DNA from: an uncultured Planctomycetales bacterium
GTDB taxonomy: Bacteria; Planctomycetota; Planctomycetia; Pirellulales; PNKZ01
Reading direction: 5' to 3'
Assembly (NCBI GenBank): GCA_963710365.1
Contig: CAVQAC010000015.1
Coordinates: 496,125 to 560,124 of the forward strand
Length of the DNA stretch: 64,000 nt
Under the pieces are notes generated by a model. That model searched no databases. It worked only from the letters and a program-made list of their open reading frames with translations, and was not told the origin of the DNA. Positions 56,134 through 58,968 of the stretch are shown piece by piece (the stretch's first letter is position 1; every line of letters starts with the position of its first letter). Made by a program: the position numbers and the translations under genes.

Positions 56134-58576
56134 TTAACGTCTTCGGAACAACTCTGAGGCGACGAAGGCATCGATGAGGTCACGCAGTCGGTAGCCGTGG
56201 TCGCGGGTTTGCCGAACGATCAAGTTGATGGCTGCTTCGTCTTCCAGGGTTATCGACCGTCGCAAGGCATACACGGCAAGCTTGCCCGTGAAGGCGCGAG
56301 CAAAGACTTCCGGCTTCGCCGCGAGCAATCGCTTGAAATCAGCGGCATCGGCAAAGCGGCGCCCGTCGGGAAGCTGGCCGCTGGCATCGACGGGTGGGTT
56401 GGCGCCTTTGCCTGCCAGGACAACTTCTTCCGTGCGCCAGCGGCCGATGGCGTCGTAGTTGTCGAAAGCCAGGCCCAGTGGATCGATCTTGGCATGGCAG
56501 GCAGCGCAATTCGCGTTGGCTTTGTGTGCGGCCAGCTTCTGGCGAATCGTAGCCTTGGGTTCGTTCACGGGGTTCGGCTCAATCGCGCTGACATTCGGCG
56601 GTGGCGGCGGAGGCGTCTTGCCAAAGACCGTTTGCGAGACCCACACCCCGCGATGCACGGGCCGGTGCCGCGTTCCGTCGGAAGTCAACGACAGCACGGA
56701 CGCCTGCGTGAGAATGCCTCCCCGATGCTCCTGGGGCTGCAGGACGACGCGCTCAAAGCCGCCACTGGCCGGCGGTTCTAGTCCATAGTGCAGCGCCAGT
56801 CGCGGATTGAGCATAGTCCAATCCGATTCGAGGAATTCGACCAGCGGAAGGTTTTTGCGGAACATTTCGGCGAAGTAATGCGTGGTCTCGAGGACCATGC
56901 TCTGCTCCAGCCAGTCGTCGTAGTCGGGGTAGAGTTTCGGATCCGGCGGAAAAGCTCCGACTCTCTTTAACTGCAACCATTGCCGCGGAAAGGATTCAGT
57001 AAACCTCGCGATCTTCGGATCGGCCAGCATGCGCGCGGCCTCGGCTCGCAGACCCTCGCGATCGTGCAATCTGTCATCCATCGCGGCGGCCAACAGATTC
57101 TCGTCTGGGCCGGAGCTCCACAGAAAAAACGACAGGCGCGAGGCCAATTCTTGATCATTCAACAGCGTGCGATTTTCGCCCGGCGAACCTTCCGCAATGT
57201 AGGCGAAATTCTTCGAGGCGAGCAGGCCCACCAGGGCAGTCCTGTACGCCACGCGAAAGGATGACTCGCGCCGCCAGTTCGCGCGAGACGATCGTCGCAT
57301 AAGGGCGGATTTCTTCCTCGGTGACGGGTCGGCGCCAGGCGCGCTGGGCGAAGCGCGTGAGGCAGGCCAGCACGTCCTCGGTACTCGCGTTGTCGGCGGG
57401 AAACAAGCCTGAGCGCTTACGCACGTCGTCCGGTTTCTCCAGCGGCCCTTGCCAGTCGATCCAATCGAAGATAAGCAACGGATAGAGCGGCCGGCCTTCG
57501 TCGTCGGTCATCTTGCGCTGCCAGGGCGCGCGGGATTTCGGATCGTTGAGTGTGGTGAACACAAAACCGCCCGGCCGGCCCGAGCGCGGCGCGTTCGAGG
57601 GGCCGGGTACCGCGTTGTTGATCGCGATGTCGAACTTGCCGGCCGGCAAAAATGTCTCGAACTCCAACACCACCGGCTTGTCCTCCGACGCGAGGACATC
57701 GGCCTCGAAGATCATGCGGTCCAATTCGGGAGAATACAGGCTGACGTGCGGCGACCGCCCGCCGGTCGGCCTCAGCCCGCTCAACTGCATCCTTGCCCGA
57801 TACAGCCCCGACGCCTGCCGGTAACCCGGATCGGGACGCAGGAAAGAAAGTTGCAGCCCGGGCCACATGAGCATGCGAATCCTGGGAGTGATGCCGATCC
57901 AATCCAGCTCTTTGCGTTTATCGCCATTCTGCCAGTCGATGGTCAGGGCATCGCGGTGGGTTTTGACTTGAAACGGCTTCGAGTCTGGAAATGCCTGATC
58001 GATAATCTCCGCGGCGGCTTTGAGGTATTGCTCGACGTGCGACGGCGACAGCGATAGTTCACTCCCCAGCCGCTCGATTCCCTGCCAATTCGGATCTTCC
58101 GCGAATGCACCGGGTGCGCGGGTGTCGTATCGCACGCCGAGGAGATCATACACGGCGTGCGAGTATTCTTCCCGGCTCAACCGGTAGTGGCTCACCGGCG
58201 CGCGTTTGGCCATGCGAGCGGCTTCGCCTTCCTTGATCCGCGCGGAGAGCCACTCCATCACTCGGCCAGACGCTTCGGCGGTGGGCTGCGGTTCATCTTC
58301 CGGTGGCATCTCTCCCGCGCCGATTCGCGTGATCACCTCGATCCAGCGCTCGGCCGCTGAACCGCCCGCGAAATCACGAGTCAGCGCATCCAGCCGCAGA
58401 TCTGCCTTGTGCTCGTCCGGGCCATGACAACGCAGGCAGTGCTTTCGCAAATAAGGCTCAACCGTTTCCGCAAACCCTGGCGACGCGTCCGCGGCAGCGA
58501 AGACTGTGCTCGTCAACGGGCAAGCGAGCACAAGGCTCAGCAGCACAATGGCTCGAATCAGCGGCATCGGATTCAT
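56134..58576 (-). CDS. DUF1592-group multidomain protein with CxxCH N-terminus (copy 2), one frameshift near 57270
   Basis: A signal peptide is followed by 'YLRKHCLRCHGPDEHKADLRLD'. 'GAGEMPPEDE', 'YRLSREEYSHAVYDLLGV', 'ELASRLSFFLWSSGPDENLL' and 'CAACHAKIDPLGLAFDNYDAIGRWR' are present. ORFs 57155..58576 and 56134..57300 join as 'SRELAA/ESSFRVAY'. Confidence 0.85.
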
Positions 58577-58770
58577 CTTCGAGGCGGGCGGCAGGCGGGC
58601 ACCGAGGGAAAGTGCATTTTAACTGGGCGTGCCGCCTCGGTATAGCGACGGTCAAGTCTCGAATTTGCTTGCTATCCGTACTGCCCGCGGATAGGCTTAG
58701 GTTCGCTCGCGCTTTCGGAAGACAAAGTGAATAGCACCCCGGCCCATCCGGGTGGCTCGTCAATGAGTAA

Positions 58771-58819
58771 GCCGACGTGGTAGAGCACCTTTTGGTGTTC
58801 TGCCACGTCGGCTTTTTTT
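58771..58819 (+). terminator. Strong rho-independent terminator, plus-strand specific
   Basis: A 19-bp stem (58771-58789 pairs with 58794-58812) needs only two G.U wobbles in the plus-strand RNA. The loop is UUUU and a U7 tract follows at 58813-58819. The minus-strand RNA would have A.C mismatches and no U tract. Confidence 0.8.
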
Positions 58820-58832
58820 GTTTCCCCTCAAT

Positions 58833-58904
58833 GTCAAGGTGACGACGGGGGTCAAGGTAACGACGGGGCCGGATTATTCCCTGCCGCCGGATTGGCCTCG
58901 CGAC
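58833..58904. repeat. Four 18-bp-periodic direct repeat units upstream of the VWA gene
   Basis: GTCAAGGTGACGACGGGG (58833-58850) and GTCAAGGTAACGACGGGG (58851-58868) are tandem. CCGGATT then recurs at 58869 and 58887, keeping the same 18-bp phase. Confidence 0.7.
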
Positions 58905-58968
58905 GAGACAGCGATTATTCGATCAGCGCTCGCTCAAACAGCGCTCAATCAAGTGGGAGAACGCAGTC

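Follow-up and report, generated by a model that had tools for sequence, protein, structure and literature searches.

The window analysed here is the whole stretch of 64,000 nucleotides (nt) from an uncultured Planctomycetales bacterium (assembly GCA_963710365.1, contig CAVQAC010000015.1), and the element in question lies in a 392-nt spacer (58577-58968) between a divergently transcribed gene with PSCyt and PSD domains and a gene for a VWA-domain protein (Table 1). Positions 58704 to 58819 of this spacer, the first of them a predicted transcription start, most likely encode a structured RNA of about 115 nt, which is transcribed from a sigma70-like promoter of its own and ends in a very strong intrinsic terminator. 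The family to which this RNA belongs is apparently an undescribed one of Planctomycetota, new as a family and familiar in its working principle. The initial annotation of the spacer, made from the sequence alone, had noticed the terminator as a near-perfect plus-strand hairpin with a 19-bp stem at 58771-58819, and this was borne out, the stem being slightly longer (21 pairs from 58769), with a 4-nt loop and a run of seven U directly after it, as is usual for Rho-independent terminators. Two of the 21 pairs are G-U, so the hairpin is perfect solely as plus-strand RNA. That annotation had also called the terminator an orphan: the left-hand neighbour is indeed divergent, on the minus strand, but the terminator ends a conserved RNA core with a promoter of its own. 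A small plus-strand RNA ending at about 58819 had been offered as one explanation, and it has since gained a promoter, a covarying structure, four paralogues and hundreds of relatives; the window element is almost certainly a genuine member of a structured-RNA family whose copies carry their own promoter and terminator.

Table 1. Features of the spacer and of its flanking genes, in window coordinates.
Feature	Position	Strand	Remarks
Divergent gene with PSCyt1, PSD3 and PSD5 domains	57155-58576	-	Outside the element
-35 element TTGCTA	58669-58674	+	Match to the family promoter
7-bp dyad CTATCCG-N9-CGGATAG	58672-58694		Inside the promoter spacer of the window copy
-10 element TAGGCT	58692-58697	+	17-nt spacer; TAGGAT and TAAGAT at equal distance in paralogues
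Conserved RNA core	58713-58819	+	107 model positions; covariance-model score 119.8 bits, E = 3e-25
5' motif UCGGAAGACA	58715-58724	+	Family consensus UCGGAHGACU; UCGG (58715-58718) can pair with CCGA (58772-58775), helix P0
Irregular rod hairpin	58722-58768	+	Helices ACA/AGU, UGA/UCA, AGC/GCU, CCCGG/CCGGG
Mini open reading frame (mini-ORF) MSKPTW	58763-58783	+	Six codons; non-conserved, taken as chance
Intrinsic terminator	58769-58819	+	Arms 58769-58789 and 58794-58814, 21 pairs, UUUU loop, T7 run 58813-58819
GTCAAGGTRACGACGGGG, two units	58833-58868	+	18-bp tandem, 17 of 18 positions identical; unique to the locus
GCCGGATT, two units	58868-58893	+	Starts at 58868 and 58886, 18-nt spacing; unique to the locus
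VWA-domain gene, 858 aa	58969-61545	+	Pfam VWA_3, E = 8e-18; starts 149 nt past the U-tract

Comparison of the spacer with its own 7.8-Mb assembly by BLAST revealed a recurrent part of just 110 nt, which ends in the terminator (58714-58823) and is present as four further copies of 71-85% identity on two other contigs, along with some terminator-only relics. A covariance model built from the five copies recovered exactly those five full copies in the genome, and all of them share the 5' motif UCGGAHGAC, an interrupted hairpin, the linker AGUAAG and the terminator. Within the same order, 52 of the 151 genomes sampled had matches to the model (38 of 96 genera); copy number there reaches 11 per genome, and copies often lie 0.1-6 kb apart. 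Outside the order, 150 genomes of the phylum were sampled, and only 5 of them had matches. The exact pattern of the terminator foot was found at more than 119 loci in a collection of species-representative genomes, all but one of them labelled Planctomycetota and spanning Pirellulales, Planctomycetaceae, Gemmataceae, Isosphaeraceae, Thermoguttaceae, Phycisphaerae, Tepidisphaeraceae and Candidatus Kuenenia, among others. The full-length model gave 119 matches within the 81 loci searched with it (80 from the scan for the terminator-foot pattern and one from a viral contig), and several family-wide counts below refer to 226 distinct copies.

The initial annotation had proposed a comparison with Rfam, and the RNA of the window belongs to no family of Rfam 15: permissive E-values gave nothing on it (best overlap ctRNA_pGA1, 16.3 bits against a gathering threshold of 45), the RNA at eight related loci was likewise unmatched, and a tRNA and tmRNA scan found none. 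Neither a match to the family nor any regulatory RNA of Planctomycetota turned up in the literature searched, and a 2025 review of the phylum uses none of the terms sRNA, riboswitch or non-coding RNA. The only planctomycete-labelled candidate motif in that literature is Rhodopirellula-1, a hairpin in 5' configuration to genes (Weinberg et al. 2010, PMC2864571 supplement). Judged by eye, its aligned rows (AACAA..CGGAU..GAAC ... GUUAUCC..UGACGUU) have neither UCGGAHGACU nor AGUAAGCCGACG nor a terminator.

The RNA is predicted to fold very stably, with -61.3 kcal/mol for 58700-58822 (z = -6.5 against shuffles), and its structure is well supported across the family. Standard pairs fill 95.3% of the cells in an alignment of 119 sequences, and 29 of the 35 pairs show compensatory changes on both sides, in terminator and rod alike. 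None of 500 shuffles reached any of five measures, and in a control with partners slid by 1-3 columns pairing fell to 26-46%. The lower terminator stem (AAGCCGACGUGG/CCACGUCGGCUU) hardly varies within the family and the upper stem covaries; in the rod, the apical loop (CCCAU in the window copy) is variable and the internal loops have conserved A.G juxtapositions, and the primary sequence of the unpaired segments is highly conserved. Over the 226 copies, paired positions hold 773 G-U against 111 A-C combinations, an excess that points to an RNA read from this strand.

A family promoter of the form TTGCnT-N16-18-TA(C/G/T)AAT precedes the copies, and in the window copy it places the predicted start near 58704 and the length of the terminated product at about 115 nt. 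Counting matches at 8 or more of 12 positions, we found this promoter upstream in sense in 111 of 216 copies, in antisense in 8, and within the 118 nt after the terminator in 1. The promoters fall into two classes, in which the -10 element ends 8-17 nt (short form) or about 42-69 nt (long form) before UCGG; the long form carries an extra 5' hairpin, and the window copy is of the short form.

Clustering of the open reading frames (ORFs) around the copies gave one dominant family, MpsC (PF10057, formerly DUF2294), with a gene within 3 kb of 110 of the 226 copies. Upstream and divergent MpsC genes number 82 (mpsC-A, about 80% identical across the phylum), and 66 lie downstream and co-oriented (mpsC-B), as against one downstream on the other strand; mpsC-B starts about 35-60 nt past the U-tract, behind a Shine-Dalgarno sequence. 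A second motif in mpsC-B leaders, GGAAGAC, was considered as a shared protein site and dropped, being confined to a subclade. RNA and MpsC occur together in 45 of the 151 genomes of the order, RNA alone in 7, MpsC alone in 10 and neither in 89. Other genes directly downstream of copies encode CsbD, YflT, KaiC, sigma-70-family factors, CsrA, BON, PRC-barrel and ice-binding-like proteins, glycosyltransferases and phosphoketolase.

Three loci with independent gene calls illustrate this arrangement. The first has an RNA followed by mpsC-B, an unknown gene, Band_7, a glycosyltransferase, another unknown and two GH130 genes; in the second, a tandem pair of RNAs precedes CsbD and a further RNA precedes mpsC-B and csrA; and the third has, in series, RNA-Transgly_assoc, RNA-HSP20-HSP20-Band_7 and RNA-mpsC-B. 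All seven copies in these loci are co-oriented with the next gene and lie 14-155 nt upstream of it, six of them before genes for MpsC (three times), CsbD, Transgly_assoc and HSP20 and the seventh as the first of the tandem pair before CsbD. The same holds for orientation in the genome of the window, where all five copies are co-oriented with the next gene (VWA, a Gly-rich/TPR protein, an LRR protein, YflT followed by a glycosyltransferase, and phosphoketolase). The four copies outside the window lie in two 'stress islands' (G000:C18:104000-122000 and C19:55000-78000) that hold three MpsC genes, KaiC/KaiB, YfdX and YflT and, by likeness of first residues alone, PPK2, a GH130-like protein, a Na+/H+ antiporter, phosphoketolase and aldolase.

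In some assemblies, Kuenenia-like ones and others from Planctomycetaceae, complete copies also follow one another as direct tandems with only 7-16 nt between them (L147:5164-5387, L215:9529-9760 and L120:6272-6510). The second copy of such a tandem has no room for a promoter and can thus be made only by read-through of the first. The start of genes a few dozen nt behind the terminator, the near-lack of promoters between, and the tandems all argue that transcription must sometimes pass the terminator. A conserved structured domain with covariation, consistently placed upstream of and co-oriented with genes, is also what would be expected of a riboswitch or attenuator. The family is tied to MpsC/DUF2294 and to stress-type genes, and most plausibly it is a riboswitch-like or protein-dependent conditional terminator; judging from sequence comparisons, we put the probability that conditional termination in cis is its main job at about 60%. 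An attenuation leader was the other explanation in the initial annotation, and the leader-like placement before genes upholds it for the family as a whole, though not with translation of the mini-ORF as the trigger.

We suggest the following course of events. In the nascent RNA, the 5' UCGG would pair with CCGA at the foot of the terminator's 5' arm, and this helix, P0, would close a long rod, in which P0 is followed by a 3x3 loop of purines, the helix ACU/AGU and then three more short helices with conserved A.G juxtapositions between them; the rod's internal loops carry purines that are invariant in the family. If a hypothetical ligand or protein locked the rod, the lower seven terminator pairs could not form, and the residual hairpin would be too far from the U-tract to terminate, allowing read-through into the downstream gene, here the VWA gene. 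If the rod were not locked, the 3' arm would displace P0, the 21-bp terminator would win and a stable small RNA would be released. When the nascent transcript was folded without its 3' arm, P0 was predicted for 156 of 199 copies and likewise for the window copy. The invariant 5' UCGG is often extended as GUCGG or CGUCGG, and its complement at the terminator foot is CCGA(CG); in the 5' strand of P0, changes that keep pairing (C to U) number 15 against 5 that break it (U to C or A). The near-invariance of AGUAAGCCGACG would be explained by its serving as the 3' strand of the rod's base, with the opposite terminator arm invariant in turn.

Several points weigh against conditional termination. Both strands of P0 are more than 94% invariant, so this helix shows no covariation, and its 4-7 pairs face a 21-bp terminator, which is longer than usual riboswitch expression platforms. 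The alignment was fitted to the model and its loci were partly picked by the exact stem-foot pattern, although the covariation of the upper terminator stem and of the separate hairpin is unaffected by this selection. The genome counts come from related genomes and are phylogenetically non-independent, so that the odds ratio of 57 between RNA and MpsC is no formal test. Ad hoc gene calling in unannotated loci is unreliable and picked many antisense frames: the raw ORF-based figure of 74% co-oriented includes many 'convergent' calls that are antisense frames of real genes, and the orientation stated above rests on the MpsC genes defined by hidden Markov models and on the three independently gene-called loci, with other family-wide orientation figures being rough. 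MpsC-A, a protein linked to the RNA by its gene, gave neither a confident fold relative nor an RNA-binding fold when its structural model was searched with Foldseek. Finally, cis control of the VWA gene is the weakest step, because this gene starts 149 nt downstream of the U-tract and the RNA is missing from the loci of its orthologues and its paralogue.

Known systems offer partial models for conditional termination. The pbuE adenine riboswitch and others of the ON-type terminator class use the 3' strand of the sensor's closing helix a second time, as the 5' foot of the terminator, so that a closed helix prevents termination. The logic of a foot shared between closing helix and terminator is the same as that proposed here, but the planctomycete RNA has no three-way junction, no purine-related genes and no covariation in the closing helix. 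In protein-dependent antitermination, as with ribonucleic antiterminator (RAT) elements bound by BglG, LicT or SacY and with leaders controlled by PyrR or HutP, an irregular hairpin likewise overlaps the terminator and the gene for a small protein of a co-occurring family adjoins or follows the leader. The planctomycete RNA differs in that the known binding motifs are not present and the MpsC/DUF2294 model has no recognisable RNA-binding fold. A further parallel is the HMP-PP (thiS motif) riboswitch, a terminator-embedded aptamer which likewise has conserved nucleotides in or overlapping an intrinsic terminator stem, compact ON-type control of read-through, and tandems (Atilho et al. 2019, PMC6478431). 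By contrast, the conserved positions of the planctomycete RNA are mostly in a separate 55-nt rod, only the terminator foot being shared, its stem has 21 bp, its genes are stress-type and MpsC genes and not thiamin genes, and it has no Rfam match. We therefore regard the family as an orphan riboswitch or antiterminator candidate, with hundreds of members, firm covariation, a clear genetic partner in MpsC/DUF2294 and a coherent downstream set (HSP20, CsbD, YflT, Transgly_assoc, Band_7, KaiC, and glycosyltransferase and GH130 operons). It could reveal how planctomycetes switch stress protection and what role DUF2294 proteins play, and it accounts for one class of very strong 'orphan' terminators between planctomycete genes and would improve the annotation of these genomes.

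The copies might instead be stand-alone trans-acting small RNAs (sRNAs). Sibling sRNAs such as Qrr1-5 and LhrC1-5 occur in several near-identical copies per genome, each with a promoter and a terminator. Every planctomycete copy would then be a complete gene, in which the terminator would serve only the 3' end and stability, either the conserved, single-stranded 5' UCGGAHG or the linker would act as seed or protein-binding site, and adjoining stress genes would be co-regulated or merely linked. The conserved promoter and strong terminator with its tail of seven or eight U fit this reading, as do the multicopy, clustered occurrence, the high conservation of unpaired segments including the 5' motif, the distance of more than 100 nt to the next start codon in the window copy and two others of its genome, and the VWA orthologues that do not need the RNA. 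Against this, in many copies the downstream genes begin 14-60 nt past the U-tract with essentially no promoter match between, an arrangement by which the family also departs from Qrr1-5 and LhrC1-5, and the tandem copies that lack a promoter would, on this reading, be dead genes in spite of their good conservation. We consider it a real though unlikely possibility that trans action is the whole story; the two kinds of action are not exclusive, and the product of conditional termination could also act in trans.

A promoter and a U-tailed terminator would be expected of Hfq-type sRNAs, but of 41 genomes of the order only 1 gave a hit to Hfq, and none was detected in this assembly. A link to CsrA would fit the GGA in the 5' motif and the csrA genes directly downstream in three loci; yet each RNA has a single conserved GGA, unlike the sequestering sRNAs of the CsrB/RsmZ type with their many exposed GGA. 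This assembly has 12 CsrA-family genes above the Pfam cut-off, and together with the scarcity of Hfq this suggests that post-transcriptional control based on CsrA is expanded in these planctomycetes.

An intermediate case is provided by the Brt1-9 RNAs of Bartonella with their downstream trp1-9 genes, for which the authors hypothesise action both in cis and in trans (Tu et al. 2016, PMC5387305). These RNAs are likewise multicopy, clustered, highly conserved and structured, each directly upstream of the gene for a small protein. They are confined to one genus, measure about 200 nt and precede genes for helix-turn-helix proteins, whereas the planctomycete RNA is about 115-160 nt long, spans several classes and precedes MpsC and many other stress genes; the two have no sequence likeness.

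If conditional termination does depend on a protein, MpsC-A is the obvious candidate by linkage. In this extension of the model, the divergently encoded MpsC-A would sense stress, bind the rod and keep UCGG:CCGA closed, suppressing the terminator, such that mpsC-B, HSP20, CsbD, YflT, compatible-solute and other genes would be turned on from constitutive-looking sigma70 promoters. RNA and MpsC/DUF2294 would thus be one RNA-protein switch running a general stress response, which, if true, would work by antitermination instead of an alternative sigma factor and would provide the first molecular function for DUF2294. We know of no RNA-binding activity of MpsC/DUF2294, and a sequence search of the PDB with MpsC found nothing. 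The AlphaFold model of MpsC-A is confident (mean predicted local distance difference test score, pLDDT, 89), and its weak Foldseek matches were Bet3/TRAPPC3, H-NOX, YslB and uL23 (E of at least 0.02, template-modelling (TM) score of at most 0.44). We consider a switch of this kind speculative and improbable as it stands.

A third reading would have the element as a DNA repeat of the repetitive extragenic palindrome (REP) or miniature inverted-repeat transposable element (MITE) kind, or as a terminator module that has been reused widely and does not function as an RNA. Its multicopy and patchy spread, the near-identical stem foot across distant lineages, the terminator-only relics that act as ordinary gene terminators and the one copy on an IMG/VR contig would all suit such a repeat. 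This reading is nevertheless very improbable: it is contradicted by the roughly 7:1 preponderance of G-U over A-C, the one-sidedness of the conserved promoter, the fixed orientation relative to MpsC genes and the covariation in the 55-nt hairpin outside the terminator, and the flanks inspected, in which no systematic search was made, have neither terminal inverted repeats nor target duplications. A ribosome-mediated attenuator, in which translation of MSKPTW would melt the terminator, is refuted at the level of the family and can be set aside, since the mini-ORF, though present as first described and overlapping the 5' arm of the stem, has its AUG (58763) in a variable part of the linker and with no Shine-Dalgarno sequence ahead of it, just 15 of 226 copies have an AUG anywhere in this stretch, the four paralogues read AUA, ACA, ACC and ACG at that position, and variation follows base pairs and not codons. 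The shared MSK of the mini-ORF and the main ORF, already suspected to be coincidental, is best put down to chance.

The relics themselves lie at G000:C18:115326-115395 and G000:C19:59334-59400; one stands directly behind the stop codon of a gene for a Gly/Tyr-rich protein, ahead of an mpsC-B gene, and the other, flanked by convergent stretches, is a terminator for both directions. The copy filed as viral (L193, IMG/VR contig IMGVR_UViG_3300032397_001619) occupies 2831-2937 of the minus strand, with an MpsC gene 145 nt downstream, and this contig may be a mis-binned piece of a chromosome or a vehicle for lateral spread.

Returning to the window copy, we propose only tentatively that conditional termination governs the VWA gene, a link that we hold doubtful. 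The structure had been expected to be kept upstream of orthologous genes, and it is absent from 19 VWA orthologue loci and from the paralogue on contig C17 of the same genome; the idea that the RNA is an intrinsic part of the VWA leader was rejected on these grounds, which leaves the VWA gene as a possible cis target in this genome only. Nor is synteny between the VWA gene and the divergent PSCyt gene conserved. The paralogue (G000:C17:41659-44253, minus strand) is 78-91% identical to the VWA gene; the match falls into three pieces, one of which contains a TAA, so that the paralogue is possibly a pseudogene. A different terminator stands upstream of it, and its likeness to the window begins about 35 nt before the ATG.

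The remaining features of the spacer are peculiar to this locus. Of two further hairpins described upstream of the terminator, ACCGAGG/CCTCGGT found no support, as the predicted fold of 58577-58660 does not surpass that of shuffled sequence (z = -0.14 on the plus and -1.31 on the minus strand). CTATCCG/CGGATAG is real as a dyad and is not an RNA hairpin, lying between the -35 and -10 elements and upstream of the predicted start. Arms of 7 bp occurred in 4 of 2,140 shuffled spacers, and this dyad is absent from the other copies; as a family-wide operator such dyads were rejected for lack of enrichment (mean arm 3.47 against 3.38 in shuffles), and that of the window copy may be a locus-specific operator or chance. 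Downstream of the terminator, what had been described as four 18-bp-phased repeat units are in fact two unrelated two-copy repeats, neither of which occurs elsewhere in the 7.8-Mb genome. The 18-bp repeats were thus discarded as a feature of the family or the genome, and they may be operators for this locus or chance; the stretch 58820-58968 has no unusual fold (z = +0.78).

Two observations concern neighbouring or unrelated sequences. A match to the Acido-Lenti-1 RNA (39.2 bits against a gathering threshold of 37) was found in a planctomycete assembly (L183:1122-1167, minus strand), outside the phyla in the name of that motif. To the left of the spacer, the minus-strand ORFs 57155-58576 and 56134-57300 overlap and divide one PSCyt/PSD architecture between them, with positions 5-45 of the PSD5 profile ending the former and positions 36-62 beginning the latter; the two are probably a single gene split by a frameshift or an assembly error.

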